From assembly GCA_964292495.1 (NCBI GenBank), contig CAXYVX010000001.1, positions 1 through 63,300 on the forward strand: a stretch of DNA of 63,300 nucleotides, written 5' to 3'. Positions 228-57,915 of the stretch are shown here, piece by piece (the first letter of the stretch is position 1; each line of letters begins with the position of its first letter). The DNA comes from an uncultured Candidatus Saccharibacteria bacterium (lineage in GTDB: Bacteria; Patescibacteriota; Saccharimonadia; Saccharimonadales; Saccharimonadaceae). The position numbers and the translations under genes were made by a program. The notes beneath the pieces are model-generated. The model searched no databases. It saw only the letters and a program-made list of their open reading frames with translations, and was not told the DNA's origin.

Positions 228-259
228 CTGATTTACGCGTTTATTTACGTGTTCTAAAA

Positions 260-463
260 TTAATCCAGTTCAACCGTTTCAAGCGCGGACAATTTTCGCG
301 AAATAAACGAGTCCAGCTCCTCGTGGCTTCTCTCTCTTAACCATGAAAACAGGGAAGTGCTTTCCATTTTTGCCTTTCTTTTTCTTTTTATTTTATTTCG
401 CGGCCACGAAATTATGTTTATATTGTAGCAATAATTAGCCCAAATGTCAAGTATATTTTTCAA
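260..463 (-). CDS. small hypothetical ORF (67 aa), doubtful
   Basis: ORF track only. No convincing RBS or -10 seen; lies in a 300-bp gap. Confidence 0.2.
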   Translation of the reverse strand: MKNILDIWANYCYNINIISWPRNKIKRKRKAKMESTSLFSWLRERSHEELDSFISRKLSALETVELD

Positions 464-483
464 TAAAATGTTGTAAAAAAACG

Positions 484-511
484 TTGACTTATATCATGCT
501 CGTGCTAAAAT
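484..511 (+). promoter_or_regulatory. sigma70-type promoter for the 533 gene
   Basis: TTGACT (484-489), 16-nt spacer, TGc-TAAAAT (503-511). AAGGAGGA RBS lies downstream. Confidence 0.55.
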
Positions 512-532
512 AAATGTAAGGAGGAAAACAAA

Positions 533-1222
533 ATGAATGAGATCTATGATATCTGGATACCAGCGGTTGCGGCGGCTTTAATTATGGCAAGTTTTTCCAT
601 GCCAGTTTCTCTATTGACCATGCTTGCGCACAATATTTTGGGCCACGAGAAGCATCACGTAAAACTGACGCGGTTTTCATTTTTGTATTTTTGCGGCGCG
701 CTTCTAGCGATGCTTTTATTGACATTTTTCGCAATCACAGTGGTGAATATTCCGTTTTTCGCGAATGATCACAGATTTATTTGGTCGCTTTATGCACTTT
801 TGATTATTGACGGATTGTTTGTTTTGATGTTTTATTACCGTTCAGATAGAGGTACGAGATTGTGGCTTCCAAGAAAATCTGCTGTGAATTTGACTCGTTC
901 GGTTGAGCAGGTTAACGGCGGCGGAAGTGCTTTTCTTTCGGGCGGGCTAGCCGTTTTTGCCGAGCTTCTGCTTACTGTCGTCCCGATTTTCATCGCTTCC
1001 GAAAGTTTGTCAAAACTTGGCGGCGACACGCAATATTACGCCGGGTTCGGATTTGCGTTTTTGGCGCTTTTGCCAGTGATAGCACTGATATTCGCGAATG
1101 CTGCTGGTAAGAAAATCAGCAAATTCCAGAGATTTCGCGAAAAAAACAAGATGTTTTTTCAGATTACTGCCGGGATTTTAATGCTGGCGCTTGGTCTTTA
1201 TTTATTCATGATTAACAAATAG
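533..1222 (+). CDS. polytopic integral membrane protein, family not recognised
   Basis: 229 aa with about 6 hydrophobic segments and a strong AAGGAGGA RBS 7 nt upstream. Confidence 0.75.
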   Translation: MNEIYDIWIPAVAAALIMASFSMPVSLLTMLAHNILGHEKHHVKLTRFSFLYFCGALLAMLLLTFFAITVVNIPFFANDHRFIWSLYALLIIDGLFVLMFYYRSDRGTRLWLPRKSAVNLTRSVEQVNGGGSAFLSGGLAVFAELLLTVVPIFIASESLSKLGGDTQYYAGFGFAFLALLPVIALIFANAAGKKISKFQRFREKNKMFFQITAGILMLALGLYLFMINK

Positions 1223-1237
1223 AAATGGGAGAAAAAA

Positions 1238-1504
1238 ATGGTAAAGGTTTTATTAGATAAAAAGGTTTCGGAATATGATCCGGTTCGTCATCACGCGGCG
1301 GTCGCAAAAACTGCTCGCGCGAATGGAACGCCGAGCGGCGATGCGGAAAATTTCGCAAAAAACGTGATGAATAAAATATCAGTATGGATTCGCGATAAAG
1401 AAGAGATAACTGCGGAGGAATTGAGGGCGATTACTTCCGGAATGATGGCGGAATATGACGAAGACGCCGCATATTTATACGGCAGCGAAAACCGCATGAT
1501 TTAA
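1238..1504 (+). CDS. stand-alone ATP-cone-like domain protein
   Basis: 88 aa. The pattern (V..L.K...EYDP.......A.......G.....ENFAKNV...I...I....EITAEELR......M..YDEDAAYLY) resembles the ATP-cone of NrdR/RNR. GGGAGAA RBS. Confidence 0.5.
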   Translation: MVKVLLDKKVSEYDPVRHHAAVAKTARANGTPSGDAENFAKNVMNKISVWIRDKEEITAEELRAITSGMMAEYDEDAAYLYGSENRMI

Positions 1505-1510
1505 GGAGCA

Positions 1511-2905
1511 ATGGTGGGCAAAAAAGAAAGAAAATTTGATTATGATTTGGTTGTCATCGGCAGCGGTGCTGCTGGTGCGGTCATCGCGGAATCTGTTGCT
1601 TCGTGCGGAAAAAAAGTCGCGATAATTGAGTCCGGAAGTTTTGGCGGGTATGCACCAAATTTTGGCGACATCCCATTGAGAGCCGCGCTCGAATCCGCGC
1701 ATCTTTTCGCGAAAACGAAAACTGCGGGAACGTTTGGGTTGCGAACGAATTCAGTTGGCTATGGTTTTCCGGGGGTGAAAAACTGGCGCGAATCCGCAAT
1801 TTTAAGAAGTGGCGTGAAAAAAACAGCGGAGTATTTGAGGTCTCGTGGAGTTGACGTGGTCCGCGGGCGAGCACATTTTATTTCAAAAAACGAAATAACT
1901 GTTGGCAGAAATTCAAATCGTAGGCACATTTCCTCTGATAAATTTGTTGTTGCAACTGGAATTTCGCGAAAAATACCAAAAATTTTTGACGAAATCTCGG
2001 TTTTGACCCCAGAAAATATTTTTGATCTGAATCGTCCACCAAAAACTCTTGCGGTCATTGGTTCGGGCGCCGAAGCGGTCGAGTTGGCGGAATTTTTCGC
2101 GATTTTAGGAACAAAGGTTTATATGATTGAGAAGAAAGCTGAGATTCTTGGCGGGTTTGACGAAGAAGTTTCAAACGAAGTTCGCGAAGATTTTTCAAAA
2201 AGCTATGAAACAGAATTTCTGGTTTCCGCTGAGATTTTCTCTGTAAAAAAGGAGGGTTCTCTTGCGAAAATAACATACGGCGCGGGTGGATCAGAAAAAT
2301 CAATCAAAGTTGAGGAGGTTTTGTTTGCGGAAAGCGGATCTCCATGCATGGATTTGGGGCTGGTTTCGGCGGGCGTTGAATTTGACGAATATGGAATTTT
2401 GACCGACGATTTTCTCTCAACGAGCGCAAAAAATATTTTCGCGGCTGGAAATGTCGTAAAAAGGAATTTTCTAAATCATGTAGACATTTCAACAACAATA
2501 TATCAAGCTTCTGTGGCTTCGCAGAACTTATTTAAAAGGAAAAAGGAATCTGCTTTTTCAAGACCGGACTATAAAACTTTGGCGATCAATCCGAAAGTCG
2601 TTTCTGTTGGGCTCAGCGAAATTACACTTCGCGAAAATGACATAAAATACAAAAAATCTGTCGTTCAAAACAACATTTCATCCCAGGCGAACATTTCCGG
2701 CGAAGCGCGAGGTTTCGTCAAGATTCTCGCAAGCCAAAAAGGCGAAATATTGGGTGCAACAATTATGGGCGCCGGCGCGCTTGAAGAAATTGGCGTTTTT
2801 TCCCTGGCAATTCGGCATGGGCTGACCGCAGAAATTTTGGCGGACGAAATACAGCCTTTCGGATCTTGGAATGAAACCGTCCAAACCGCTCTGCGCCAAC
2901 TGTGA
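1511..2905 (+). CDS. class-I pyridine nucleotide-disulfide oxidoreductase homolog (Lpd/GR/MerA fold) lacking the redox-active cysteines
   Basis: DYDLVVIGSGAAG FAD dinucleotide fold and a second Rossmann motif LAVIGSGAEAVE. The canonical GGxCxNxGCIPSK is GGYAPNFGDIPLR, and the C-terminal HxxxxE region reads QPFGSWNE. Confidence 0.8.
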   Translation: MVGKKERKFDYDLVVIGSGAAGAVIAESVASCGKKVAIIESGSFGGYAPNFGDIPLRAALESAHLFAKTKTAGTFGLRTNSVGYGFPGVKNWRESAILRSGVKKTAEYLRSRGVDVVRGRAHFISKNEITVGRNSNRRHISSDKFVVATGISRKIPKIFDEISVLTPENIFDLNRPPKTLAVIGSGAEAVELAEFFAILGTKVYMIEKKAEILGGFDEEVSNEVREDFSKSYETEFLVSAEIFSVKKEGSLAKITYGAGGSEKSIKVEEVLFAESGSPCMDLGLVSAGVEFDEYGILTDDFLSTSAKNIFAAGNVVKRNFLNHVDISTTIYQASVASQNLFKRKKESAFSRPDYKTLAINPKVVSVGLSEITLRENDIKYKKSVVQNNISSQANISGEARGFVKILASQKGEILGATIMGAGALEEIGVFSLAIRHGLTAEILADEIQPFGSWNETVQTALRQL

Positions 2906-2908
2906 TTC

Positions 2909-4573
2909 GTGTTAATATGTTTCTATATGATAAGAAATTTTTTCGCGAAACATGAAAAATCCGTCAGTGTGATCGCGGTTTTGGTTGCAGTTTTGGTCTT
3001 TTCGGCGATTTGTTTTACGCAAATTGGACGCTGGTCAATCTGGTTTGACGAGAGTTTTACTCATTTTTTAGTCAAATTTAATTTTTTGGATATTGCGAAA
3101 TGGACCGCAAGCGACGTTCATCCACCTCTGTTTTATTGGCTTCTGAAATTATGGTCTCTAATTTTCGGGTCAAGCGATGTTGCGCTCAGAGCTTTTTCAA
3201 CGCTTTGCGGCGCCGGCGCGATTGCGATGGGATTTGTTGTTTCGCGAAAACTTTTTGGGAAAAAGGCGGGATATCTCGCGCTGCCGCTTCTTGCCTTGTC
3301 TCCGATGCTTTTGCGATACGGAATTGAAATGCGGATGTACGCATTCGTGGTGTTTTTGGTTTTTTTGCAGCTATTTATTTTGATCAAAATTCGCGAAAAA
3401 AGCACTCGTTTACACTGGGTTTTATACGGTTTTTTGTTGGCGATCGGCGCGTGGACCCAATATTTCGCGGTCTTTTCTGGTGTTGCTCAGGTGATTTGGC
3501 TATATGTTTCTGCGCGGGCTGATTTGGGCGAGAAAAAGCTATTTTCGCGAAAAATATGGCGAAAGTTTATTACTGGATCTGAACAAAAAAGCCAAAAAAT
3601 CAAGGATATTATTTTCGCGAAAAACGGAAATTTATTGCAAGCAGTTCTTGTGGCATTTATCGTTTTTCTTCCGTGGATTCCGTTTGTTTTGATCCAATTT
3701 TTGACTGTTGCCACGAGCGGATTCTGGATTCCGCCGGTTAATTTCGCGACAATTCCTGACCTGATTTCGAGCATGTTTTTCTTTGAAACAGCCGCAAATT
3801 TGACGGGTTGGTTTTCGATTATTATGATCGCGGTGATTGCGTTGATTTTTGCGCAAGCAAGAAAAGCATTTCGTGCGAATCCTAAAAAAGATTTTCGCGA
3901 ATCTTTCAATCTGGTTTTATTTGGTGTGATCATTCCGCCAGCCATACTTCTTTTGATTTCGTTGCCGCCAATGAGAAGCTATTTTATCGACCGCTATGTT
4001 TTGGCGAGCGTAGCGATGGTGCCAGTTTTGATCGCTGCGATTATCAGTGTTTCGCGAAAAAATACAAAAAATGTGCTGGGAATTGCGCTGTATATTTTGG
4101 CGATCGGTTCGTCAATTTTCGGAGTTTTATCTCTGTTCCATTACGGAAATTATAATCGGTATTCGGGCGATATTTCAATGTCAAAATTCATGATGAAGCA
4201 AGTTCAGGAGAAAACCGGCGCAAATAAAATTCCAGTTGTGGCTGATTCTGCTTGGAGTTTTTTCGATGCCGACACTTACGCGACAAGTGAAAATCCAGTT
4301 TATTTTTTGGATTCGCAGGTTGATAATTATTATTACGGTAGCGAAAAAATGTTGGCTGGAAGCCAGGAAGAAATCGTTGACCTTAAAGAATTTTTCGCGA
4401 AAAATAATAGCGAGAGTTTTTGGTATGTTTCTTCAACGGGATCCGCGGAAAATTTGCCCGGAGAACTTTCGGATTTCAGAGGTAAAATCACGAAAATTGA
4501 TGAAATAAATGTGAATACGCCGAACGGCTGGAAAGGCTCAAGCCAGGCTGTTTTATATAAAATACAACATTAA
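2909..4573 (+). CDS. GT39/ArnT-PMT-like membrane glycosyltransferase
   Basis: 554 aa, polytopic. The N-terminal WFDESFT...DVHPPLFYWLLKLW loop is typical of the ArnT/PMT_2 family. The start could be ATG 2927 rather than GTG 2909. Confidence 0.7.
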   Translation: MLICFYMIRNFFAKHEKSVSVIAVLVAVLVFSAICFTQIGRWSIWFDESFTHFLVKFNFLDIAKWTASDVHPPLFYWLLKLWSLIFGSSDVALRAFSTLCGAGAIAMGFVVSRKLFGKKAGYLALPLLALSPMLLRYGIEMRMYAFVVFLVFLQLFILIKIREKSTRLHWVLYGFLLAIGAWTQYFAVFSGVAQVIWLYVSARADLGEKKLFSRKIWRKFITGSEQKSQKIKDIIFAKNGNLLQAVLVAFIVFLPWIPFVLIQFLTVATSGFWIPPVNFATIPDLISSMFFFETAANLTGWFSIIMIAVIALIFAQARKAFRANPKKDFRESFNLVLFGVIIPPAILLLISLPPMRSYFIDRYVLASVAMVPVLIAAIISVSRKNTKNVLGIALYILAIGSSIFGVLSLFHYGNYNRYSGDISMSKFMMKQVQEKTGANKIPVVADSAWSFFDADTYATSENPVYFLDSQVDNYYYGSEKMLAGSQEEIVDLKEFFAKNNSESFWYVSSTGSAENLPGELSDFRGKITKIDEINVNTPNGWKGSSQAVLYKIQH

Positions 4574-4606
4574 ATTTTGATTAAAATGGCGGTTTCTGCC
4601 GAAATT

Positions 4607-4615
4607 TGATAAAAT
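4607..4615 (+). promoter_or_regulatory. extended -10 (TGaTAAAAT) 6 nt before the ftsH ATG (leaderless)
   Basis: TGATAAAAT at 4607-4615, then AGAGAT, then ATG at 4622. No SD. Confidence 0.55.
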
Positions 4616-4621
4616 AGAGAT

Positions 4622-6502
4622 ATGAATCCAAGAGGGAAAAAACCAGCGGGCGGATCGCCTGCGAACCTGTCGCCGAAGGGGCGCTGGGTGAGAAATATCT
4701 CGTTTTATGCAGTTGTGATTTTTATTGCAGTTTTAGTATTTGCGGCGGTCAAAACTGGATCGGGTCTGAAAAATGTCCCGTTTAGCGAATTGATTGGCCA
4801 AGTTAATGACGGAAAAGTCGCGAAAATTGTTGAAAGCGGGCAGGATCTTGAAATAACTTTGAAAGACCAGAAAAACGCAACGGAATCGAGCATGATTCCG
4901 AACGGCGCGAGCGCTTCCCAGCAAGGACTTGACATTACGAAGGTTGATTATAAAGTTGTGGCCGCTGATAATACGGCTGGAATGATCTGGAATATTGCTG
5001 GAATTGTAGTGCCAACATTGGTCATTATTGGCTTGTTTGTTTGGATGATGAAAAGCGCGGGAAATCAGGGAAACCAATCAATGGCGTTTGGGAGAAGCAA
5101 GGCGAAACTTTATGGAAAAGACAAAAAACAACAAAAATTCGCGGAAATCGCTGGCAACGCAGAGGCAAAACAGGACCTTGAAGAAGTTGTTGATTTCTTG
5201 AAGCATCCGAAAAAATTCATTTCACTTGGAGCAAAAATTCCGCGAGGGGTTTTGATGGTTGGTCCTCCGGGAACCGGAAAAACCATGTTGGCGCGCGCCG
5301 TTGCAGGGGAAGCTGATGTGCCATTTTTCTCGATTTCTGGTTCAGAATTTGTGGAAATGTTCGTTGGTGTTGGTGCGAGCCGTGTTCGCGATTTGTTTGA
5401 AAAGGCGAAAAAGAACTCGCCCGCAATTATTTTCATTGATGAAATTGACGCTGTTGGACGACGCCGAGGATCCGGAATGGGTGGTGGACACGACGAGCGA
5501 GAACAGACATTGAACCAGATTTTGGTTGAAATGGACGGTTTTGACAAAGACCAAACAGTGATCGTTTTGGCGGCGACAAACCGCGTGGATGTCCTTGACC
5601 CAGCATTGCTCCGACCAGGACGTTTTGACAGACGAGTAAACATTTCTCTCCCAGAAAGAAAAGATCGCGAAGCTATTTTGAAAGTTCACGCAAAAGGGAA
5701 ACCGGTTTCAAAAGATGTTGATCTTGATGCACTTGCTGCCAAAACAGCTGGAATGGCTGGTGCCGACCTCGCGAATGTTTTGAACGAAGCTGCGATTAGG
5801 GCTGCTCGCCAAAATGAAAAGGAAATCACGAACGATGACATCACTGACGCTTTTGAAAAAGTTTCAATTGGTCCGGAGCGCAAAAATAAAGCTATGAATG
5901 ATCGCGACAAAGAACTAACTGCTTTTCATGAGGGCGGCCACGCGCTCGTTGCGCAGGTTTTGCCAGACAGTGATGATGTCCATAAAGTCACAATTATTCC
6001 TCGCGGCGGCACCGGTGGCGTGACTTGGACCTTGCCTTCTGAAGATCGTCCATATACGTCAATTGTTGAGTTCAAAGATATTTTGGCTCGTGCTCTCGGT
6101 GGGCGAATCGCGGAAGAAGTTGTGTTTGGCCGAGATCACATTACAACTGGAGCTGGATCTGATTTGCGGAACGCGACTTCAATTGCTCGCGACATGATCA
6201 TTGAACAGGGAATGGGAACGAAATTACGCGACCAAGTTTTCCATGAAGATGAGGGCGGATTGATGATGGATCGCATTGCTCGCGAAAAACCATATAGCGA
6301 AAAAACCGCAGAAGAAATTGACAAAGAAGTGAATGAGTTGATTGAAGAAGCGGCGAATCGTGCAAGGACCGTGATCACTCAAAATCGAAAAATGTTGGAT
6401 AAAATCAAAGATGAACTTCTTGAAAAAGAAACATTGGACGCAGGCCAAGTGAAAGAAATTTTCACTGGAGCGGTCCTGCCTGATTCGGCAAAACTATATT
6501 AA
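4622..6502 (+). CDS. ftsH: ATP-dependent zinc metalloprotease FtsH
   Basis: Walker A GPPGTGKT, Walker [13 protein letters not shown] region, and zinc motif HEGGHA. Confidence 0.97.
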
Positions 6503-6520
6503 ATTTTGTTGGAACATAAA

Positions 6521-6557
6521 AAACCTGCTCGGAGAAATCTGAGTAGGTTTACTTTTT
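6521..6557 (+). terminator. rho-independent terminator of ftsH
   Basis: 10-bp stem AAACCTGCTC/GAGTAGGTTT (one G-U), 10-nt loop, then ACTTTTT. Confidence 0.7.
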
Positions 6558-6647
6558 ATCGAGCATATTCTTAAATGGACGTGATAAAAGGGATTTTAAT
6601 AAAATTGGGGGAGATGATATGAGCAATCTAACAAAACAAGTCATTAA

Positions 6648-8055
6648 CGTTCACGTTCTGGGGTGGGTCAAGCACCGCCGAGCGTGCCAAACGCGCCAAA
6701 CACTGGCTTCATTGGCGGACTTGCTGATTTCGCTCAAACAAATTTCTTAACCATCATCTTACTTACACTTGGTATCACCGCAATCATCCTAGCAATCATT
6801 TTCTTCATCAAACACAAGAAGAAGGGCAGCGGCAATAAACTCTCACCAAGCTTCAAAACATCAAAGTTTTCCTTCAAAAACAAGCTCAGCGACAGAATCT
6901 CCAAACCGAAAACTAAATTCGCCGCCATATTCTCATCTTTCACAACCGCAATTTTTGCGGCTATTTTCATTCCTACATTTTTAGCGAATGCAGCCACTCT
7001 GCCACACACGGACATTACCTCAAGTGGCTCAAACGTGAATATCACACTTGTCAAAGGTGAATCTGGCACAAAAACCACTGTCGCGAAAAGCCCAGTAAAT
7101 ATTACTAGCAACATCAACACTGAACTAACTGCAAAGCTGAGTTTAGACACCACTGAAACCAGCCCAGAAATCATCGCGAACTTCACCGCATACACTGGAA
7201 GCGTCTCAGCACCAGCGCAACAAACTGCCAACACGCTCGGTTTCGCGATTCCTAACACAGAACAGTACTTAGTTGCCAACGAATTCGCCCCAGGCTATTC
7301 TCAAACTGAAAACAGCACCACCATCCCAAGCGAAACCTTCGCTGGAATTGATGTAAATGGCGCCCAAACACCTTTCAAAATCATCCCAGTGGACACCATC
7401 ACTAATGGCACATATTTAAACATCGCCACAGATTTGTTCTTCGCAATTACCGCCGATGACAGCTTGCCGGTAGGCGACTACAAGGCGGTTGTGAACATTA
7501 AAGCCGCTGACACCTCACAAGCAACTGTAAAAGTAAACTATAACACCACCAGCTCAACCAACCAAGATGTAATCGCGACATTAACTTCCAGCGAGCCACT
7601 TCAAACACCAGCTGGCTGGACAGAGGTTTCTGGTAGTGATGGCACTCAGTTTACAAAAGCATTCAGCGACAATATCACTGAAAACATCACGGTCAAAGAT
7701 CTAGCAGGCAATGAAACAGATGTTCAAATAGACATCACAAATATTGACAAAACTCCGCCAGTCATCACTATAAATGGCGCGATATCACTAAACCATGAAG
7801 CCAAAACATCTCACACTGACCTGGGCGCAGATGCTATAGATGCGGTAGATCGAGCAGTTTCTGTCAGTACATCTGGCGCAGTCAACGACCAAGTCAAAGG
7901 TCAATACACCATCACTTACACCGCCACCGACGCAGCTGGCAACCAAGCCACCGCCACCCGAACAGTAAATGTGGTAGACACAACCGCGCCAGTTCTCACA
8001 GTTTCACCATCCAGACTTGACATTGTTCAGGGCACGACAATCGCGGATTTGAATG
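6648..8055 (+). pseudogene. chimeric, 3'-truncated surface-protein ORF: orphan PNTG sorting signal + signal peptide + Ig-like (DUF5011-type) domains
   Basis: The frame opens at 6648. It reads APNTGF + TM + KHKKK (a C-terminal sorting signal), then a full signal peptide (..FIPTFLANA/AT), a T/S-rich region, and a DUF5011-like repeat (GQYTITYTATDAAGNQATATRTVNVVD). Composition switches at about 8055, and the last ~40 codons of track ORF 6663-8174 are island DNA. Confidence 0.55.
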
Positions 8056-8678
8056 CTTATATCGTATTCTTCCGCAAAATCAAAAGGCAGGCCATCGTAT
8101 TCTTTATTGTCTCGATTTCCTATAACGTCAAGAAGAGCTTGGAAAAGGAGCTTTTTGGAATTACTAATAGCTAGTAAAATATTAATGTCAGAATCCTTGG
8201 ATTTAAGTTCATCTTTTAATCTTCTATCTCCCTTGATACATTTATGTACTAAGGATTGAAATTTTTTAGAATCAATTTGAGTATAAATGCGAATGAAAAG
8301 AGGGTTAGTGATGCCCTTTAAAACCTTATCCTGATTTTTTTGCTATTTTTAATGCTTCTTCCTTGTAATCCTTGTTGATTTCTGGAAATTTTACTAATGA
8401 ATCTTCCTGCATAGCCTATTTTACTTGGATTATATACGTCTGTAGCCCCATTTGCTATCGCTTTTTGTGATTCTTCGGGGCTGTAGCTATATGCTCCATC
8501 TGCAAGAATAAAACTAAATAGCACCGCGGCTATTTTTTGACCCCCATCAAGCGGATCATTACTTATCAGTAACCTTACATGATTTATCGAAACTCTGTTT
8601 CCATGCGAGAGTAGCTGAGTATTTTATTATTTCAAAGTAGCTTCTAAAATTCCATCTAATTTCTTTGTTTTTATCCAT
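8056..8678 (-). pseudogene. decayed gene in three frame-disrupted pieces at the left island edge
   Basis: GAGG RBS + ATG at 8678 gives 39 aa then a stop. The frame then continues as ..DPLDGGQKIAAVLFSF..RIRF* (track ORF 8318-8524), shifts again to KGITNPLFIRIY..LPFDFAEEYDISI, and runs into the junction at about 8055. Confidence 0.5.
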
Positions 8679-8852
8679 GATCTCTACCTCTATTGCCTAC
8701 TATTATACCAAAGCTAGACAATGATTTCCATTGACTTTTTTGCAAAGTATGGTAATGTATAAGAGGTAGATTTAGCGTTTATTGCGTTTACTCCACAAGC
8801 CCTTGCTTGCGGAGACGTAAGCAAAATCTATGGCACAGAAAAGGCTATAACT

Positions 8853-9239
8853 ATGGGATTTTATCCGGTAAAAGGTATGGTTTTTAACACACAAGATATG
8901 TTCAAAATGCACGTTTTTGATCTCAATATGGAATTAAAAGAACACGCTGCACAAGATCTGATGAACGAAGCGTTTACTTTGAACGACGTATTTGCGGTAC
9001 GTTTCGCGATGGGGAACTCTACCAGCGACATCATTTTCTTTATGGGGGTTGATGCAGATGCAACTTTAATTGCGATTGATTGGTTTGCTCGAATATTGGA
9101 GAGAGATTCTGAATTAACAGAAGAAGATTACGCATTTTATAATCGAATTCTCAAATATATGAAAGCATTCCCGAAGGATGACAGCGAATTGTATGACTCC
9201 TTCGATGAGCGACGAGCTAAAGGACACGTCTACATTTGA
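8853..9239 (+). CDS. hypothetical acidic cytoplasmic protein (128 aa)
   Basis: Clean ORF with a TTGACT-N16-TAATGT promoter-like element at 8731-8758 and a terminator downstream. No recognised motifs. Confidence 0.6.
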   Translation: MGFYPVKGMVFNTQDMFKMHVFDLNMELKEHAAQDLMNEAFTLNDVFAVRFAMGNSTSDIIFFMGVDADATLIAIDWFARILERDSELTEEDYAFYNRILKYMKAFPKDDSELYDSFDERRAKGHVYI

Positions 9240-9267
9240 CGAGAATTGAACGTATCTAATTTCACAC

Positions 9268-9296
9268 ACTTCCGCCTAAAAAGCGGAAGTTTTTTC
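9268..9296 (+). terminator. rho-independent terminator
   Basis: Stem ACTTCCGC/GCGGAAGT, 7-nt loop, TTTTTT. Confidence 0.8.
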
Positions 9297-9427
9297 TTTG
9301 CTCAAAAAATTCATAAACTTCATCTTATTTTTCATGAACTTCACGTGAATGAATGAATTAAGATAAGAGTGTAGAGTTAATCAGGCCTGATGATTTTACA
9401 AAATACTTTATAAGGACGGTATTGCAG

Positions 9428-9610
9428 ATGACCAACAAAAAAGAAATCTCAAAAAATGAGCAAGACAGCACTCAAACACATAAAAAAGAAGCAAAAAAAC
9501 AAAAAGAGGTTAAAATCCTTGACTCTCCAGAGTTTGAGGAAACCTATAAATCTAAGTTTGTGGAGCGTATCATTAGTATTGATGAACTAAGAGAGAAGCT
9601 TGGTAAATAA
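9428..9610 (+). CDS. small K/E-rich hypothetical protein (60 aa)
   Basis: ATG at 9428 (the track starts at TTG 9422). Highly charged, predicted helical. Confidence 0.45.
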   Translation: MTNKKEISKNEQDSTQTHKKEAKKQKEVKILDSPEFEETYKSKFVERIISIDELREKLGK

Positions 9611-9760
9611 TTGAGCTCAGAACAGAGAAAGGCGATTGAAATGAAGATTAGAGCACCTGTGAGCTTGCTCGCTTTATCACGGCAATGTTTTTATGAAGAA
9701 TTAAACCAATTTTGCAGCTTGTATGAACTTTAAGAATCCAATGAAACGGAGAGAACAGAA

Positions 9761-10192
9761 ATGAAAATCTTAAGATTCAATAAAAATAGTTTGCCATCGG
9801 GCGATGATAAAGCAATTGTCCGTATGGAGGCGATGACACCAGAAGAACAGATGAGACCGTCTGATTACCGTATACTGAGCGAATTTATGACGATGAAGCG
9901 AGTGAATGCGAGCTTTTTGAAACATTTTAAGGACGGTGAAATTGATGTTAATAATGAAGATATCCGGGATAATTTCATTGAACTTCTGGCTGAAAAAGTG
10001 CTGGTGGATATTGAACGTCAAAAATCGGAACATGAAGCTCAGATTGAAACTCTTGCGCAGCTGAGCGAGGCACATAAAAAACAATTTACAGATCATTTGG
10101 AAAAAGTAAAAACTAATTTAGCGGAACAAGAATCTATTGTCAGGTTGCTCAAAGAAAAACAGGAGGACTTCCATGTTGCACAAGAAAAATGA
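9761..10192 (+). CDS. hypothetical coiled-coil protein (143 aa)
   Basis: GGAGAGAA RBS 6 nt upstream. The C-terminal half has heptad-like E/K/Q-rich sequence. Confidence 0.6.
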   Translation: MKILRFNKNSLPSGDDKAIVRMEAMTPEEQMRPSDYRILSEFMTMKRVNASFLKHFKDGEIDVNNEDIRDNFIELLAEKVLVDIERQKSEHEAQIETLAQLSEAHKKQFTDHLEKVKTNLAEQESIVRLLKEKQEDFHVAQEK

Positions 10193-12268: not shown

Positions 12269-12288
12269 AAAAGAAAGCAGGAAAGAAA

Positions 12289-12519
12289 ATGGAAACAGAA
12301 GAAACGATCGCTGAACGGCTTGAATATTTGGAAGACTGTATGGAAGAGGTTTGGGAACAAAGTGGGCGTCAAAAAGCTATTTTTCAGATGCTCGAAGAAC
12401 TCTGCGAAACGCTTGGTGTGCCGCTGAACAAATGGGCGGAGTTGGAGAAAAAAGAGATTGATGAGTTGCGCGAACAGCAGGAACAAAACGAACGGGAGCT
12501 GCGAGGAGAGGAGGAATAG
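12289..12519 (+). CDS. small acidic coiled-coil protein (76 aa)
   Basis: AGGAAAGAAA upstream. E-rich helical sequence. Last gene of the plus-strand operon. Confidence 0.5.
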   Translation: METEETIAERLEYLEDCMEEVWEQSGRQKAIFQMLEELCETLGVPLNKWAELEKKEIDELREQQEQNERELRGEEE

Positions 12520-12678
12520 ACGATGATTTCTAATGTTAGAGTGTATTTTCCGCCTTGAGAAGGTGAAAAAAAGAGCCGTTTTACGACTCTATGAAAGGTG
12601 CGAAAAGTACCACGGAGAACGTTGACGAGAGGTATTGTAGACTATGTCGGTCTTTTCCCTTATCATCTTAACAGCTTC

Positions 12679-46355: not shown

Positions 46356-46394
46356 AAATTAGTAAAAAAACATTATGTAGATAATTTTACTACA

Positions 46395-46432
46395 TTGGCA
46401 CTCTTGACACGAGAGTGCTAATTTCTTATACT
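46395..46432 (+). promoter_or_regulatory. CIRCE operator 2 + dnaK promoter
   Basis: TTGGCACTC-N9-GAGTGCTAA (46395-46421). -35 TTGACA (46404-09) lies inside the spacer, followed by 17 nt and TATACT (46427-32). Confidence 0.9.
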
Positions 46433-46528: not shown

Positions 46529-48433
46529 ATGAGTAATATTATTGGAATTGACCTCGGTACGACCAACTCGGCCTTTGCTTACCTAGTGGCGGGAAAGCCA
46601 GAAGTTATCGCGAACAAAGAGGGCGATCGCACGACGCCGAGTGTGGTTGCGATCACGAAAAAGGGCGAGCGATTGGTTGGAAAACCTGCTCAGCGCCAGC
46701 GCGTAACCAATCCAACGGGGACAATTTACGCTATCAAACGCTTGATTGGGCGCAAGCTAAGCGATCCAGAAGTTCAGAAAGATATTGAAATTTCGCCGTT
46801 TAAGATTGTCGGCAAAAATGGCAACGCGGCGGTGGAATTGGATGGAAAAACATATTCGCCAGAGGAAATTTCTGCGATGATTCTCGCGAAAATCAAGGCT
46901 GATGCGGAGGCTTATCTTGGTTCGCCGGTGAACGAAGCGGTCATTACAGTGCCAGCGTATTTTGACGATGCTCAGCGCCAGGCCACAAAAGACGCTGGAA
47001 AAATCGCGGGGCTTGAAGTGAAGCGAATTGTTAACGAGCCAACCGCTGCGGCGCTGGCTTACGGTCTTGAAAAAAATAAGGATGAAAAAATCGCGGTGTT
47101 TGACCTTGGTGGAGGAACATTTGATGTCTCGATTTTGGAGCTCGGCGACGGTGTGTTTGAGGTGAAAAGCACTAATGGCGACACGCACCTCGGCGGCGAA
47201 GACTTTGACAACCGAATTGTGAATTATTTCCTGGATCAGTTCAAAGGTGAATCCGGCATTGATCTTTCCGGTGATAAAGCCGCGATGCAGCGTCTGAAAG
47301 ATGAAGCTGAAAAAGCCAAAAAAGAGTTGTCTACCACCACGGAATATGAGGTGAACCTGCCATTTATCACGGCGGATGCAGATGGTCCGAAACATTTTGA
47401 GACCACTTTGACCCGTGCGAAAATGGAAGAGTTAGTTAAGGATTTGATTGACCGCTTGGCTGGACCGTGCGAGAAAGCGCTGAAAGATGCGGGATTGAAA
47501 CCGGCGGATCTGGGCGAAGTGGTTTTGGTTGGCGGCATGACTCGTATGCCAGCGGTGATTGCGAAAGTCAAGGAAATTTTCGCGAAAGAGCCGATGGCTG
47601 GCGTGAACCCGGACGAAGTTGTTGCGGTTGGCGCAGCGATCCAGGGCGGCGTGCTTGCGGGCGACGTGAAAGACGTTTTGCTTCTGGATGTGACGCCATT
47701 GACGCTTGGAATTGAGACGGCTGGCGGCGTTCGTACCCCGATGATTGACCGCAACACCACGGTACCAACCAGCAAATCTCAGGTGTTTTCAACCTTCGCT
47801 GACAATCAGCCCCAAGTTGAGATCAATGTTTTGCAGGGCGAGCGAGAATTCGCGAATGACAACAAATCTCTTGGAACATTTGTTTTGGACGGAATTGCAC
47901 CGGCACCGCGCGGCGTGCCGCAAATTGAAGTCACCTTTAGCATCGACGCGAACGGACTTGTGAACGTTTCTGCGAAAGATAAAGGCACTGGAAAAGAGCA
48001 ATCAATCACGATCCAGAACAGCGGTAATTTGAGCAAGGATGACATCGCGAAGGCGCAGGCGGAAGCAGAATTACACGCAGACGAGGATAAAAAGCGACGC
48101 GAAACAACCGACGCGCGAAACTTGCTTGAAAACACAATTTACCAGGCCAAGAAAATGCCAGATGAATTCAAGGACAAAATCAGCGACGAAGACAAGAAAA
48201 TCATTGAAGACGCAGTGAAATCTGCTGACGAGAAAATGAAATCCGACGATCTTTCAGAGCTTGAATCCGCTCAAAAAGAACTCTCGGAAACGATTCAGAA
48301 AATTGGCGCAAAACTGTATGAAAGCGCAAAAACTGAGGAGACAGCCAGTGAAAGTGGAGAAGGTAAAACCAAAACTTCGCGAAAAAAGGCAGATGATGAC
48401 GCAGTTGAAGGCGAAGTCGTTGACGAAAAGTAG
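46529..48433 (+). CDS. dnaK: chaperone DnaK (Hsp70)
   Basis: [46 protein letters not shown]. Confidence 0.98.
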
Positions 48434-48445: not shown

Positions 48446-48476
48446 AAAAAAACCTCTCAATCGCGAGAGGTTTTTT
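48446..48476. terminator. bidirectional terminator between dnaK and the convergent small gene
   Basis: A-run, stem CCTCTC/GAGAGG, then TTTTTT. Confidence 0.8.
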
Positions 48477-49486: not shown

Positions 49487-49525
49487 TTAGCACTCTTGAC
49501 CCAGAGAGTGCTAATTTGCTATAAT
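49487..49525 (+). promoter_or_regulatory. CIRCE operator 3 + dnaJ promoter (leaderless)
   Basis: TTAGCACTC-N10-GAGTGCTAA (49487-49514) with -35 TTGACC in the spacer. TGcTATAAT at 49517-25. ATG 7 nt later. Confidence 0.85.
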
Positions 49526-52168: not shown

Positions 52169-53836
52169 ATGGTAAAACGCGAGCCACCTCAAAAACTCGA
52201 CGCCCGCGCTCATAAAGTCGAACCTGACCGAAGTAAAAAATCTTCGGAGACTGCTTTTTCTTGGAATAAACGAACAATAAAAACAGTGCTTTTTCGCGAA
52301 AAAATTCGTTCATCGTGGATGATTACCGCGATTTTAGCTGGTTTCATTGCCGGAATTGGTTTATCGCTTTTGCCGCAAGCAAATTTATTTTTTGGCGAAA
52401 TTCCTTTGATTTTTGCTGGAATTTTGGCGGTTTTGGTCTTAATTTCAAGGCTGAAATTCGCGATATTTCTTGCGATTTTTGCCGGGATGATTTTAGGAAT
52501 CAACCGCGGGTTGCCAGCACAAGGAGACTTGTCTTCGTGGCAAAATGTCATTGGTAAAAATGCAAATATAACGGCGAAAGTGGAGCAAGATCCCGGGCTT
52601 GGCGCATCGGGTGCGACGAGCTTATATTTGACGGATATTGTTTTGGGTGGTCGCGAGATGCCGGGCACGATGTATGTCAGTTTATTTACAAAAGGTCAGA
52701 AGATTTCGCGAAGTGATGAAGTTGAAATTTCAGGAAAAATATCGGCTGGTTTCGGATCTTTTGTTGCGAGCATGCGGTATGGATCGCTCGACGGAATCAC
52801 TGAAAATACTGGCGCAGATCCAGCGAGAGAAGCCAGAGATTTTTTCGGGGAAAATCTGCGCAAAACAATTCCTTCGCCCGCGTCTGATCTTGGGATGGGG
52901 ATACTTGCCGGGCAAAAAACAGCTCTTCCATCCGCAGTTTCGGTGGCTTTTATCACCGTTTCTTTGACGCACATTGTTGTGGCCAGCGGGTATAATCTCA
53001 CCATTCTCATCAGGTTCGCCAGAAGATTATTCGCGAAAATTTCCAGGTTTTCCGGACTAGTTTTTGGCACGATTTTGGTTGTTTTATTCGCGAATGTGAC
53101 TGGATTTTCGCCAAGCATGTTCCGCGCATCTTTGGTGGCAATCATGAGTTTGTTCGCCTGGTATTATGGCAGAAAATTTCATCCCGTTGCGCTGTTAATT
53201 ATGACCGCGGCCGTGACGGTTTTCGTCAATCCGACATATCTCTGGGGTGACGCGGGCTGGTGGATGAGCTTCACGAGTTTTGCTGGAGTTCTGATTTTCG
53301 CGCCGTTAATTAAGGATTTCTTTTGGGGGAATGAAAAAGATTTTCGCGAAAAGCCAAAAATTATCAAACATATAAAAACGTTCCTTTTCAGAGGGAAATT
53401 TTCCAAAATTCAGAAAAGCGAACAGGTTGAGAAAAAGCATTCAATTCGCGGAATTGTGATTGAGACTTTTAGCGCACAACTGCTTTCTGCACCTGTGATT
53501 GCTCTGGCGATGGGACAATTTTCGCCATATGGTCTGATTTCAAATCTGCTTGTTTTGCCGGTTGTTCCACTGGCGATGGCGCTGACATTTGTGGCGGGAA
53601 TCGGTGGATTTTTGTTGCCAGAATTTATCGCGAAAATTGTGGCTTGGCCGGCGACGCAGTTGTTAAACTATATTATTTCGGTCGCTGGGTGGGTGAGTGA
53701 ATTTCCGGGGGCTGAACAGAAAGTTGAATTTGGACTTTGGCATGCCGCAGCGTCGTTCGCGATAATTTTAGTGATAATAATTATCCTGAAAAAGAAAACC
53801 AGGCACAATTTTTACTCCGACAATCTTGTTGAGTAA
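52169..53836 (+). CDS. comEC: DNA internalisation channel ComEC/Rec2 (no beta-lactamase-like domain)
   Basis: DUF4131-like N-terminus + competence domain (FITVSLTHIVVASGYNLTIL, multiple TMs). Confidence 0.8.
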   Translation: MVKREPPQKLDARAHKVEPDRSKKSSETAFSWNKRTIKTVLFREKIRSSWMITAILAGFIAGIGLSLLPQANLFFGEIPLIFAGILAVLVLISRLKFAIFLAIFAGMILGINRGLPAQGDLSSWQNVIGKNANITAKVEQDPGLGASGATSLYLTDIVLGGREMPGTMYVSLFTKGQKISRSDEVEISGKISAGFGSFVASMRYGSLDGITENTGADPAREARDFFGENLRKTIPSPASDLGMGILAGQKTALPSAVSVAFITVSLTHIVVASGYNLTILIRFARRLFAKISRFSGLVFGTILVVLFANVTGFSPSMFRASLVAIMSLFAWYYGRKFHPVALLIMTAAVTVFVNPTYLWGDAGWWMSFTSFAGVLIFAPLIKDFFWGNEKDFREKPKIIKHIKTFLFRGKFSKIQKSEQVEKKHSIRGIVIETFSAQLLSAPVIALAMGQFSPYGLISNLLVLPVVPLAMALTFVAGIGGFLLPEFIAKIVAWPATQLLNYIISVAGWVSEFPGAEQKVEFGLWHAAASFAIILVIIIILKKKTRHNFYSDNLVE

Positions 53837-55179: not shown

Positions 55180-55997
55180 AAGAAAAAACATTAAAAATCG
55201 TCCAACTTTACCCAGACGAAATGAATATTTACGGCGACAACGGCAATGTTTTGGTTTTGTCTGAGCGTTCAAAATTATACGGGTTTTCACCTGAAATATC
55301 GTATTTTGAGGTTAGATCTGATCCAAAAATAATTCGTGAAGCTGACATCTTGGTTGGCGGTGGCGGGCAAGATTCCGGGCAGCTAAAAGTTGCTGCGGAC
55401 CTTCAAAAAAACGCGGAAGTTTTTCGCGAATCAATCGCAAAAGGTTGTGCGGGGGTTTTGATTTGCGGAATGTATCAGCTGTTCGGCAAGAGATTTTTGA
55501 CAAATGACGGCGACGAAATTGCTGGAATATCTGTTTTTGATGTTGAAACTATCGCCCAGCCGAAGCGATTGATCGGAAACATTGTGATTGATTCTGATTT
55601 TGGCAAGCTCGTCGGCTTTGAAAATCATTCTGGATTGACTTATCTTCGCGACGGACAGGCAGCGTTTGGAGAAATTGTATCTGGCGGCGGAAATAACGGA
55701 AAAGATGGCAGCTGGAACAGGGAAAAAGAAGATCTTAAAAACATTTCAAAAGTTAGCGAAAAAAATCTTGGCGGAAGCGAAGGATCGCGCACGGAAAATT
55801 GTTTTGGATCTTATTTGCACGGGCCAATTTTGTCAAAAAACCCGAAGTTTGCGGACGCTCTTTTGCTGATAGCAGCCAAGCGGAAATTTGGTTGTGAACA
55901 GCTGGAAGCGGTTAATGAAGATTCGCGAAAAAGATTGGCTCATCTTGATGAGATAGCGGAAAGAGCTAGAGAAATCGTTTTTTTGAGACCAAGATAG
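55176..55997 (+). CDS. gatD: lipid II isoglutaminyl synthase, glutaminase subunit GatD (CobQ/CobB-type GATase)
   Basis: ATGA overlap with murT. YPDEMNIYGD.GN, GGGQD, CGMYQLFG (catalytic Cys), and YLHGP. About 40-aa insertion before YLHGP. Confidence 0.85.
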   Translation: MKEKTLKIVQLYPDEMNIYGDNGNVLVLSERSKLYGFSPEISYFEVRSDPKIIREADILVGGGGQDSGQLKVAADLQKNAEVFRESIAKGCAGVLICGMYQLFGKRFLTNDGDEIAGISVFDVETIAQPKRLIGNIVIDSDFGKLVGFENHSGLTYLRDGQAAFGEIVSGGGNNGKDGSWNREKEDLKNISKVSEKNLGGSEGSRTENCFGSYLHGPILSKNPKFADALLLIAAKRKFGCEQLEAVNEDSRKRLAHLDEIAERAREIVFLRPR

Positions 55998-56055
55998 TAA
56001 TGTAAAATCGCCAGAAATAATTCGCGAATTTATGAAAAACAGTTCGCAAATTGTT

Positions 56056-57660
56056 TTAGTAATGGACCCAAACAGGCGTGCCGATTTGCGAGAAATCGTA
56101 AATAAATTTCGCGTCGCCTTTCCACATGTTGAGGCAGCCGTGAGAAAGCCCGGTTCTGAGCTGATCTGGCGTTAACCACCAAGCTTCGTGAAATGCATAT
56201 CCGCCTGGACCCCAGTAAGTTACATAGTGGATTGAGCAAAGGCTGGCTTGTGTTCCGCCCGGATTTGGCATGCAGACGCCGCCATAAGGGTTTGAATTCA
56301 CTGCGTTTGAGCGGTCTCGCGACATTCCCGCGGCGAGGTTCGCTTCGTAGCTTGCGTTTGGCCCGGCTGAGCCAGATGAATCGTTCCCGCCCACCTTTCC
56401 GAAAACCTTAAATAATCCAGTGATAGTTGCGCGCTCTGGGTCGATTTGCGCGGCACCTTTTGCGAAATTGTTGAATTGGGCTACCGGAGTCGCGCCGTTG
56501 TATGCGGTGACTGTCCAGGTTGAGAGGTTCGCTTCAATCCAATGCTGGTCGGAAAGTGTTTGAACCTTGTCGCTTTGCGCGGCGGACTGAGTTGTATTTA
56601 GGGCAAGATTTACTGGCTGACCGTCTTGAAGCGCGGAGATTATTTGAAGGGAAATGTCATCTGTGTTGTTAATGGCTTGGCCGTTTTGCCCCTTTGAGAC
56701 CGTGGCGTAAACTGTGTTTCCATCGGGCGAAGTTATCATTTTTCCGTTTATCGGCTTGTTTGGAATTGTCGCTTGGACTTTTGTGGAGATAAATTCTTTA
56801 ACTTTATTTCTGTCAAAAGTTATGCTGAGACGACCGTTTTCAGGAGTAAATACAGCCCAATTCGCGATGTCAACTGGATCTGGAAAATATACGGTTTGGC
56901 CATTTATTTGAAGGTTTATTCTTTGGTGAAGTCGCGAATTTATGGAATCTGCCGCTGCGGTTGCCGCTTCATCTGAGACAGCTGGTTTGCTGGATGTGAT
57001 TGCAACTTCTGAAACGGCGGATCGAGGATTTTTAACAAGACTTTCAATAATTAATTTCATTTTGCTCATATCAATCACTTTTCCTTCGGCACTAGCTTGG
57101 GTGACGAATTTTTGCGCTTTTTGATCGTAAATGACGCCGGCATTTTGAGCAGGGCTGGTGATCAGATCAGGGAAATTCTGGTTTAAAAACTTTTGCGTTT
57201 GCTCCCAATCAAAACTCGCGGAAAGCTCAATATTATGCTCCCCAAACAGATTCACGCGGTTCAGCCAGTTGTCGCTCGTGGAAACAGCTTGCTTTATGGT
57301 CTTGTCCATGTCAATTGTTATTCCCAGATCGCTAGCCTGCGCGGTCACTGTGTTTCCGCGAGAAGATAGCGTGAGCTGAATTTTGCTTTGGATTTGATTG
57401 ATTTGGTCCTTGATTGAAAGGGAGTTATTGCCGCTGACGTTATTTCCAGCGATTTTTGTGCCTGGTGCCGCTACAGCGTTGTATTTCGCGATTAAAAACG
57501 CTGCGCCACCCGCAATAACCAAGAAACAGAAAGAAATAAGGATCACAACAGCATGTTTTTTCGCCCATCCACCCGTGTGCTTTACTAGCTTTTTTGCGTG
57601 TCCAAAGTGAACCACTTCTCCGCCTGCTGAATCCTTAATTTGTTTCTTATTTTTCATCAT
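56056..57660 (-). CDS. membrane-anchored L,D-transpeptidase (YkuD domain)
   Basis: N-terminal TM. C-terminal FHEAWW....LRTGLSHGCLNM (the SHGC catalytic motif). Confidence 0.8.
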   Translation of the reverse strand: MMKNKKQIKDSAGGEVVHFGHAKKLVKHTGGWAKKHAVVILISFCFLVIAGGAAFLIAKYNAVAAPGTKIAGNNVSGNNSLSIKDQINQIQSKIQLTLSSRGNTVTAQASDLGITIDMDKTIKQAVSTSDNWLNRVNLFGEHNIELSASFDWEQTQKFLNQNFPDLITSPAQNAGVIYDQKAQKFVTQASAEGKVIDMSKMKLIIESLVKNPRSAVSEVAITSSKPAVSDEAATAAADSINSRLHQRINLQINGQTVYFPDPVDIANWAVFTPENGRLSITFDRNKVKEFISTKVQATIPNKPINGKMITSPDGNTVYATVSKGQNGQAINNTDDISLQIISALQDGQPVNLALNTTQSAAQSDKVQTLSDQHWIEANLSTWTVTAYNGATPVAQFNNFAKGAAQIDPERATITGLFKVFGKVGGNDSSGSAGPNASYEANLAAGMSRDRSNAVNSNPYGGVCMPNPGGTQASLCSIHYVTYWGPGGYAFHEAWWLTPDQLRTGLSHGCLNMWKGDAKFIYDFSQIGTPVWVHY

Positions 57661-57731
57661 GCTATGACGATTTTATCATAAGTCTAATGAAAACTTTGTT
57701 TTTTTCGCGGAATCTGATAAACTTTACGTAT

Positions 57732-57807
57732 CGGGGTGTAGCGCAGTTGGTAGCGCACGCGGTTTGGGACCGTGAGGTCGTCCGTTCGAGCCGGATCACC
57801 CCGACCA
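57732..57807 (+). tRNA. tRNA-Pro (UGG); CCA encoded
   Basis: Acceptor CGGGGTG/CACCCCG, anticodon loop TTTGGGA, and T arm GTCCG-TTCGAGC-CGGAT. Confidence 0.9.
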
Positions 57808-57915
57808 AGTTTTTCGCGAAAGCGCGTATTTTTACGTTTTAACAGTGTGCTTGCGTCGCAAAAGAAATGATGATAAACTGTTGACGGTTTGTCTGAGACA
57901 CGCCAAGGAACACTT

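Follow-up and report, generated by a model that had tools for sequence, protein, structure and literature searches.

To our knowledge, every known case of the highly iterated palindrome HIP1 (GCGATCGC) lies in one phylum, the cyanobacteria, and its function has been debated for about 30 years; because all known cases fall in one phylum, cause and shared ancestry are hard to separate. Genomes are considered HIP1-rich when an octamer palindrome exceeds 0.2 per kb, with an observed/expected ratio (O/E) above 16 under a second-order Markov model and far above other octamer palindromes (Xu, Lawrence, and Durand 2018, PMC5861425); cyanobacterial values range from 0.2 to 2.73 per kb and from 16 to 317, respectively, and HIP1 sites show conservation and quasi-regular spacing (PMC5861425). 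Cognate methyltransferases occur together with HIPs (PMC4390886), HIP1 abundance co-varies with the DNA-uptake machinery (10.64898/2026.06.24.733823), and methylated HIP1 boosts natural transformation >100-fold, a Chi-like effect having also been suggested (bioRxiv 10.1101/2024.09.10.611283). Here we analyze a stretch of 63,300 bp (43.4% G+C; "the window") from an uncultured wastewater bacterium of the Saccharibacteria, belonging to the candidate phyla radiation (CPR; Patescibacteria), in whose native chromosome the palindrome TCGCGA, often extended to the octamer TTCGCGAA, is a HIP-type element at near-saturating density.

Measured against the HIP1 description, TTCGCGAA reached 2.41 per kb and an O/E of 19.7 (second-order Markov model) in the native backbone defined below, while the second-ranked palindromic octamer, AAAATTTT, reached 0.32 per kb with an O/E of 0.7. 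The word occurred in all reading frames as well as between open reading frames (ORFs), and it was conserved between related genomes, the latter judged from few events in strains that are 97 to 99% identical. The naming of HIP1, next to uptake sequences, as closest analogue in a first-pass annotation made from the sequence alone agrees with the published description of HIP1-rich genomes (PMC5861425). HIP1 proper, i.e., GCGATCGC or a GATC-centered variant of cyanobacteria, was rejected, as the word is TTCGCGAA and the affinities of LepA, DnaK, and ClpB are with Saccharibacteria. Full-text searches found no published account of TCGCGA as a genomic signature or of such a feature in Saccharibacteria, in keeping with the annotation's remark that it knew of no equivalent in CPR bacteria.

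Abundance of TCGCGA and null models

TCGCGA was the most frequent of all hexamers in the window, above the poly-A words, with 233 copies; base composition (order 0) predicts 11.1 and a second-order Markov model 39.9, so that the excess is 21-fold to 6-fold. Among longer words, TTCGCGAA occurred 123 times (expected, 0.89 at order 0 and 6.2 under the second-order model), TTTCGCGAAA 53 times (0.07 and 1.2), and TTTTCGCGAAAA 19 times. The second-ranked palindromic hexamer, AAATTT, had 125 copies, and each of the remaining ones had at most 52. The copies were distributed over the following regions, to which no strand applies:

231 to 8063: native backbone, segment 1; TCGCGA at about 4 to 5 per kb in coding and intergenic DNA
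8064 to 15069: 7-kb strain-specific insertion; 2 TCGCGA (0.29 per kb), GC 36 to 39%, CpG odds ratio 0.96
15070 to 57825: native backbone, segment 2; density as in segment 1
57830 to 63300: mosaic region after a tRNA-Pro/Ala/Asn cluster, containing ClpB (60207 to 62390) and Hsp20 (62527 to 62952); 0 TCGCGA

In the backbone, the density was 4.55 per kb, or about one copy per 216 to 220 bp, and the final copy of segment 2 was TTTCGCGAAA at 57812, directly after tRNA-Pro. Genes were represented by a heuristic set of 54 nonoverlapping long ORFs covering 89% of the window. Native sequence examined amounted to ~60 kb, and all sequence seen to ~73 kb (the window together with 10 kb upstream), where the whole genome may measure 1 Mb.

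Two codon-aware null models were run on 41 backbone genes, one keeping the protein and shuffling synonymous codons within genes and the other permuting codons. The 210 copies of TCGCGA in these genes compared with 53.0 ± 6.2 under the synonymous shuffle (z = 25) and 25.6 ± 4.9 under codon permutation (z = 37), and the 108 copies of TTCGCGAA with 20.2 and 3.8, respectively. Both nulls are conservative because the codon usage that they keep is already inflated by TCGCGA. The first-pass annotation had proposed hyper-abundance by comparison with base composition, and the excess proved stronger than claimed, with an O/E far from 1 under either null. Its detailed readings were likewise exact on recounting: TTCGCGAA stands at 26443, 26589, 26645, 26779, 27188, 27581, and 27699 in a stretch holding 10 TCGCGA, and ftsH (4622 to 6502) carries seven TCGCGA and no exact octamer.

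Anatomy and placement of the motif

The sequence logo of the 233 copies was two-fold symmetric, W-T-T-T-TCGCGA-A-A-A-W, with T at positions -1, -2, and -3 in 70%, 55%, and 43% of copies and A at +1, +2, and +3 in 72%, 57%, and 42%; a faint A/T reversal was seen at the outermost positions (AAATTTCGCGAAATTT). Past about ±5, flank information was at most 0.1 bit, and therefore neither a conserved flank nor a mobile element surrounds TCGCGA, which leaves isolated words rather than the mobile repeat that the first-pass annotation had named as a refuting outcome. Left and right flank preferences were independent (joint T..A in 53% of copies versus 50% from the product), and the counts of 8-, 10-, and 12-mers were accounted for by their sub-words under a maximal-order Markov model; thus, the specificity consists of the hexamer core with graded outer positions.

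In the window, 41, 98, and 75 copies of TCGCGA fell in frames 0, 1, and 2 of genes and 19 were intergenic, so that 92% were genic. Two features illustrate this placement:

2909 to 4573, plus strand: PMT_2 glycosyltransferase gene, whose 9 TCGCGA are spread over all three frames (F-A-K, I-R-E, and S-R)
26443 to 27706, no strand: densest cluster, with 7 TTCGCGAA and 10 TCGCGA, mainly within gene 26367 to 27671

The three frames reported earlier for the first of these were verified as TTC-GCG-AAA at 2942, ATT-CGC-GAA at 3390, and T-TCG-CGA-A at 3241. Backbone density was higher in intergenic DNA (6.2 per kb) than in coding DNA (4.45 per kb), and 16 of 18 backbone intergenic copies had T at -1 plus A at +1, indicating that the flanks are a property of the DNA and not a coding side effect. 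The use of three frames, the higher intergenic density with the same TTT/AAA flanks, and the failure of the synonymous-shuffle null together show that the constraint acts on DNA and not on a peptide, which had been the annotation's conclusion. Intergenic copies lay mainly 3' of genes, being present in 6 of 7 convergent spacers versus 1 of 7 divergent spacers. Spacing was more even than random (coefficient of variation [CV], 0.825 versus 0.99; P = 0.0025), with a weaker effect against a null restricted to peptide-compatible sites (CV, 0.915 versus 1.03; P = 0.03), and the widest backbone gap between copies was 948 bp.

One-mismatch neighbors reachable by a transition were frequent, with 91 copies of TTGCGA plus TCGCAA and 90 of CCGCGA plus TCGCGG. 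Moreover, the backbone showed a CpG excess (odds ratio, 1.51, or 1.40 with every TCGCGA masked, versus 0.96 in the 7-kb insertion), and the half-site words TCGCGG/CCGCGA and GCGCGA/TCGCGC were likewise raised there. Three simpler identities were considered and rejected. Z-DNA was ruled out as a driver, given that the longer alternating words ACGCGT and GCGCGC were not enriched. TCGCGA is not an intrinsic terminator, since strong terminators were predicted as hairpins apart from it, and a single one (48447 to 48476) contains the word, in its loop. A mobile miniature repeat, such as a miniature inverted-repeat transposable element, a repetitive extragenic palindrome, or a bacterial interspersed mosaic element, does not agree with the lack of flank conservation beyond ±5 or with the 92% genic placement.

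Saturation of compatible sites and effect on proteins

Of the 448 peptide positions of backbone genes at which synonymous choice can accommodate TCGCGA, 214 were occupied (42 to 55%, depending on the frame), against ~49 predicted from codon usage. Occupancy of the best-flanked peptides was higher still (FRE, 17/19; IRE, 16/18; VRE, 7/7; FAN, 8/8; FAK, 30/42), while the two foreign stretches had 2 of 51 compatible sites filled. The sites in native DNA are therefore near saturation. The compatible peptides themselves were also in excess over residue-shuffled proteins:

All compatible peptide sites: 439 versus 274 ± 15 (z = 11)
FA[KN]: 51 versus 9.2
[FILV]RE: 52 versus 13.5
SR: 74 versus 46.8

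This bears out the earlier remark that proteins of the window are peppered with FAK, FRE, and SR, and no comparable excess was present in the proteins of related Saccharibacteria. The chaperone gene offers an example:

46529 to 48433, plus strand: dnaK, with 6 TCGCGA

DnaK had nine motif-compatible peptide sites, compared with three and two in orthologues of 76 to 77% identity, and its replacements relative to these included LSK>LAK, FGK>FAK, and IEK>IAK. Across motif-site peptides compared with 70%-identical orthologues, 15 of 45 were identical, roughly what 70% identity predicts. The excess of compatible peptides and the DnaK replacements show that pressure at the DNA level has reshaped the proteome; the proteins altered include DnaK, LepA, and others.

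Motif-poor stretches and recently acquired DNA

The 7-kb insertion at 8064 to 15069 was absent from the other strains, which had 0.8 kb of different sequence there, in the 3' part of a variable gene for an Ig-like surface protein. Surface and OmpA-like proteins are among its products, which comprise small proteins of unknown kind, one membrane protein, one protein with an OmpA domain, and a DUF285-like protein. In the mosaic region, 60106 to 63142 (ClpB-Hsp20) was 92.6 to 95.3% identical at the DNA level to two other, distant Saccharibacteria contigs, which had other neighboring genes and 0.1 to 0.36 TCGCGA per kb. Relatives of ClpB, in a cluster of 314 member sequences, graded continuously from 98% to 77% identity, whereas LepA fell directly to 70%, from which we conclude that 57830 to 63300 either was transferred recently or arose by chimeric joining at the tRNAs; ClpB-Hsp20 is accordingly either a widely exchanged heat-shock module or the product of a chimeric assembly join there. 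An ORF in the same region (58945 to 60003) joins an N-terminal portion of a RecQ/DEAD-type helicase (residues ~100 to 210) to a DUF1697 domain and has the look of a remnant or fused gene in foreign DNA. Whichever origin holds for 57830 to 63300, both motif-poor stretches serve as internal negative controls: TCGCGA marks native DNA only, and recently acquired DNA lacks the word.

The earlier statement that most of the backbone is motif-rich thus held for the backbone as such and did not extend to 8064 to 15069 (two copies), 57830 to 63300 (none), or the gene at 28317 to 29753 (one). The last of these, within the backbone, encodes a surface protein with a Listeria-Bacteroides repeat; it spans 1.4 kb with the single TCGCGA. 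Repeats internal to this gene match part of the other strains' variable Ig-like gene at about 72% identity, and the gene may be a cassette that was exchanged recently or evolves fast.

Distribution among strains and relatives

LepA searches revealed one near-identical cluster (99%) that included the contig of the window, with all other sequences at 70% identity or less; the matches at 68 to 70% were named Saccharimonadales, Saccharibacteria, or Mycosynbacter. LepA of the window (17639 to 19579) has 646 aa, compared with 635 to 650 aa in a few related lineages and about 592 aa in most Saccharibacteria, which suggests a lineage-specific extension or insertion. Same-species contigs from several independent sewage and wastewater assemblies were 97 to 99% identical at the DNA level and had these sites too, at a density of about 4 per kb; segment 231 to 8063, for instance, aligned with other strains at 98.7 to 99% with the same sites present. 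These contigs also supplied the 10 kb upstream of the window, encoding RuvA, RecA, RecX, dUTPase, TsaE/B, and RNase Y. Strain contigs were drawn from ERZ22666005, ERZ28615046, ERZ28615429, and SRR33662495, and an 88-aa marker gene by itself was present in 138 data blocks. The sites were common to at least six assemblies made independently in different studies, and the word is therefore not an assembly artifact.

The relatives available for comparison comprised same-species strains at 97 to 99% and then genomes at ~70% LepA identity, with none intermediate. Syntenic relatives at about 70% LepA identity had 0.27 to 0.49 TCGCGA per kb and no outstanding palindrome, and no enrichment was found in 80 GTDB loci retrieved by LepA (identity 55% or less), a set that did not include the present species. 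Searches for paired words, TTTCGCGAAA-N40-70-TTTCGCGAAA, returned from the Joint Genome Institute (JGI) metagenomes, among the matches listed, only local repeat arrays, satellite-like repeats, and chance pairs, none of them genome-wide or from this lineage; in viral contigs there were five chance matches and no motif-rich phage. Among the JGI matches listed, five contigs of one unrelated metagenome (Ga0164295; L099, L115, L149, L103, and L137) had local ATTTCGCGAAAT arrays at contig ends with a spacing of 15 to 70 bp, and four others (L114, L135, L157, and L162) had satellite-like repeats and CACACA runs with about 25 TTCGCGAA per kb. On these sequence comparisons, the motif is apparently confined to one species-level lineage.

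Constraint among strains

Eight strain sequences were mapped onto a composite reference, and variants were polarized by majority, giving 651 derived changes in 27,704 columns; expected numbers were taken from columns outside the motif that agreed in base and codon position. The 130 ancestral motifs (780 columns) had 9 derived changes versus 21.2 expected (Poisson P = 0.0025), and the deficit sat at third codon positions of the motif (3 versus 12.9). The ±3 flanks had 7 derived changes versus 16.4 expected, while CpG outside the word was unprotected (135 versus 118). A simple per-word ranking of conservation, without polarizing or codon-position matching, placed TCGCGA 62nd of 164 frequent words. 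The motif is currently protected from mutation, as recorded by 9 events among closely related, nonindependent strains (97 to 99%). Taken as a whole, a force acting at the level of DNA overrides synonymous codon choice, has changed proteins, still acts, and is felt in native DNA only.

Genes and features of the native backbone

The gene content is typical of the CPR and includes MurJ, LepA, Gmk, HrcA-GrpE-DnaK-DnaJ with CIRCE (controlling inverted repeat of chaperone expression) operators, ComEC, and MurT/GatD. Two genes bear on DNA uptake as it was discussed in the first-pass annotation:

52169 to 53836, plus strand: ComEC competence channel gene, native, with 9 TCGCGA
43086 to 43808: gene for a stand-alone GmrSD_C/DUF1524 nuclease-domain protein of 240 aa, overlapping the end of an Mbeg1-like hydrolase gene (42158 to 43129)

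ComEC, correctly recognized there, is the sole uptake-relevant component within the window; the predicted GmrSD_C/DUF1524 protein is probably what was meant by a "secreted nuclease." The gene of the densest cluster (26367 to 27671) encodes a 434-aa protein with a Trm-G10/Trm11-like (TIGR01177, UPF0020) S-adenosylmethionine-dependent methyltransferase core, in which inspection by eye showed no clear (D/N)PPY motif. The protein was rejected as a cognate DNA methylase, since its N6_N4_Mtase match is weak and its best matches are Trm-G10/Trm11 tRNA m2G methyltransferases. Two CIRCE-type inverted repeats (TTAGCACTC-N9-GAGTGCTAA) lie at 46394 to 46422 and 49487 to 49514, upstream of dnaK and dnaJ; hrcA (44792 to 45532) adjoins the CIRCE repeats, and the arrangement is that of a classical HrcA heat-shock regulon.

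Possible function and rival explanations

We favor, at a probability of roughly 0.4, the reading that the word is a methylated self-tag promoting uptake or recombination of conspecific DNA and maintained by drive plus selection, as the parallel with HIP1 suggests. Its two-fold symmetry, with flanks of graded strength, points to a duplex word read by a symmetric (dimeric) sequence-specific protein, and on the HIP1 analogy the likeliest reader would be a cognate DNA methyltransferase plus a competence or recombination factor. Conspecific DNA bearing the word, probably methylated, would be preferentially taken up or recombined by a naturally competent lineage, and such biased uptake or recombination, together with selection, would spread and keep the sites, as in the molecular-drive model for the uptake signal sequences (USS) of Pasteurellaceae and the DNA uptake sequences (DUS) of Neisseriaceae. 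We favor this reading because of the HIP1 parallels described above (methyltransferases, transformation, and uptake machinery), the enrichment, near saturation, proteome effects, current constraint, native-only distribution, even spacing, and DNA-level flanks reported above, the ComEC gene found here, and the comEC-dependent natural competence experimentally shown in Saccharibacteria (PMC10633639). Several points weigh against it. In the ~73 kb seen there was no DNA methyltransferase, restriction enzyme, Vsr, obvious DNA binder, or candidate receptor. Known uptake sequences (USS and DUS) are not palindromes, and, unlike DUS, the word is itself no terminator, the one strong terminator with a copy having it in the loop. 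Among strains, motif gains from one-mismatch neighbors were at background (2 versus 2.06 expected, with low power), and the 9 events behind the current protection come from closely related, nonindependent strains.

A bolder form of the same proposal holds that a HIP- or uptake-type self barcode evolved independently in the CPR, as a methylated palindromic tag by which a competent epibiont with a roughly 1-Mb genome would tell conspecific from host DNA in uptake or recombination. We regard this form as doubtful. If true, it would give Patescibacteria their first signature of uptake or recombination and would offer a minimal-genome system in which the HIP reader could be identified by comparing gene content with motif-free relatives.

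Under Elhai's ratchet model for HIPs, a cognate methyltransferase combined with methylation-dependent or very-short-patch-like mismatch repair turns near-matches into the word, here TCGCGA, as a functionless by-product; the model was put forward wherever a matching methyltransferase exists (PMC4390886). The abundance of transition-reachable neighbors (91 and 90 copies) and the general CpG excess of the backbone, which persists at an odds ratio of 1.40 with the motif masked, are in line with it, and recently acquired DNA lacking the word is what a slow mutational process would leave. We nevertheless hold such a by-product unlikely: HIP1 conservation has been argued to reflect selection and not replenishment (PMC5861425), and here gains among strains did not exceed background, spacing was more even than random, a fitness cost is visible in the altered DnaK, LepA, and other proteins, and no repair or methyltransferase gene was seen in the ~73 kb. 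Distinctly unlikely, in our estimate, is a binding site for an abundant nucleoid-associated or chromosome-organizing protein (ParB/Noc-like or another dimeric helix-turn-helix protein), with thousands of sites structuring or compacting a small chromosome. The half-site ATTTC resembles those of the Bacillus Noc site ATTTCCCGGGAAAT and of parS, but its half-site spacing is at least 2 bp off from that of Noc and ParB sites. Graded palindrome flanks are typical of protein-DNA binding energy landscapes, the spacing is fairly even, and a role in chromosome structure has been proposed for HIP1 (PMC5861425); yet such a protein leaves unexplained why syntenic relatives with the same gene set lack the word, and no candidate for it was present in the ~73 kb.

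The density of about one copy per 216 bp, with a largest backbone gap of 948 bp, and the native-only distribution might also point to a dense-site methyl-directed system, either a strand-discrimination or nicking signal for mismatch repair, the role of GATC in Escherichia coli, or a protected restriction-modification self mark, TCGCGA being a known type II (NruI-type) specificity. Such a density is close to the GATC density needed by MutH-type repair. Monoderm-type bacteria, however, mostly use methyl-independent MutL nicking, restriction sites are usually avoided rather than enriched, a strict hexamer-specific enzyme would not be expected to prefer TTT/AAA flanks, and no such gene was found in the 73 kb; we judge this system very improbable. 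Trivial origins, whether copies of one repeat of the mobile or miniature kind, an effect of peptides or codon usage, or an artifact of assembly or sequencing, are refuted by flanks that are uninformative beyond about ±5, by the occurrence of the word in three frames plus intergenic DNA, by the failure of both codon-aware nulls (z = 25 to 37), and by the sharing of sites among at least six independent assemblies at 97 to 99% identity.

Comparison with known systems

The word provides a second, convergent case of the HIP type, with a different sequence, in a distant phylum, and with a very small set of genes. Its close syntenic relatives are free of the word, and comparison with them can therefore cleanly test which gene, be it for a methyltransferase, competence, or DNA binding, is restricted to the motif-bearing lineage. 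It also illustrates how far pressure at the DNA level can reach, with about half of compatible peptide sites filled, tripeptide usage skewed 4- to 5-fold, and DnaK altered. In practical terms, TCGCGA is a sharp native-versus-foreign marker for this lineage, of use in detecting islands and chimeric joins and in binning, and if the word promotes transformation as HIP1 does, it could aid genetic work on Patescibacteria.

Like HIP1 (GCGATCGC) and its variants (GGGATCCC and others), the word is an octamer-scale perfect palindrome with a CpG-containing core that stands far above other palindromes; its 2.41 per kb is near the top of the cyanobacterial frequency range and its O/E of 19.7 lies within the cyanobacterial range. 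Further shared features are the presence in all reading frames and in noncoding DNA, conservation between related genomes, outer positions that deviate more than inner ones, rarity in recently acquired DNA, and a naturally competent host. Unlike HIP1, the core is CGCG and not GATC, the outer bases are A/T and not G/C, the host belongs to the Saccharibacteria/Patescibacteria, with a much smaller genome and an epibiotic lifestyle, and the occurrence is apparently limited to one species-level lineage rather than spanning a whole phylum; HIP1 also has the cognate methyltransferases DmtA/DmtC, whereas none was seen here in ~73 kb.

The likeness to USS and DUS lies in hundreds to thousands of copies, a word of 9 to 12 bp with weaker A/T-rich flanks, the use of several coding frames with effects on encoded peptides, enrichment in the core genome with rarity in foreign islands (here 4.55 per kb in the backbone, 0.29 in the insertion, and 0 in the ClpB region), spacing more even than random, intergenic copies chiefly 3' of genes (6/7 convergent versus 1/7 divergent spacers), and an organism with a competence system of the ComEC/type IV pilus type, of which the ComEC gene was seen in the window. 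USS and DUS, however, are asymmetric whereas this word is a perfect palindrome; it forms no terminator-like inverted pairs, and its density is 3 to 5 times higher. The type II restriction-modification target TCGCGA (NruI-type) is the identical hexamer, a palindrome such as dimeric enzymes read, but such targets are usually avoided where the enzyme is encoded or met, while here the site is about 20-fold enriched with a preference reaching flanks beyond the hexamer. A restriction-modification target in its own host was thus rejected, given the 6-fold to 21-fold enrichment and the lack of a restriction-modification gene in the available DNA. Chi sites share with the word the character of an over-represented short sequence that marks self DNA and could stimulate recombination, but Chi is asymmetric, biased in orientation relative to replication, enriched only a few-fold, and less conserved against synonymous change. 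In summary, the word shares the population-genetic behavior of USS and DUS without their structural features, behaves opposite to a restriction target, and is HIP-type but not HIP1, differing from it in both sequence and phylum.

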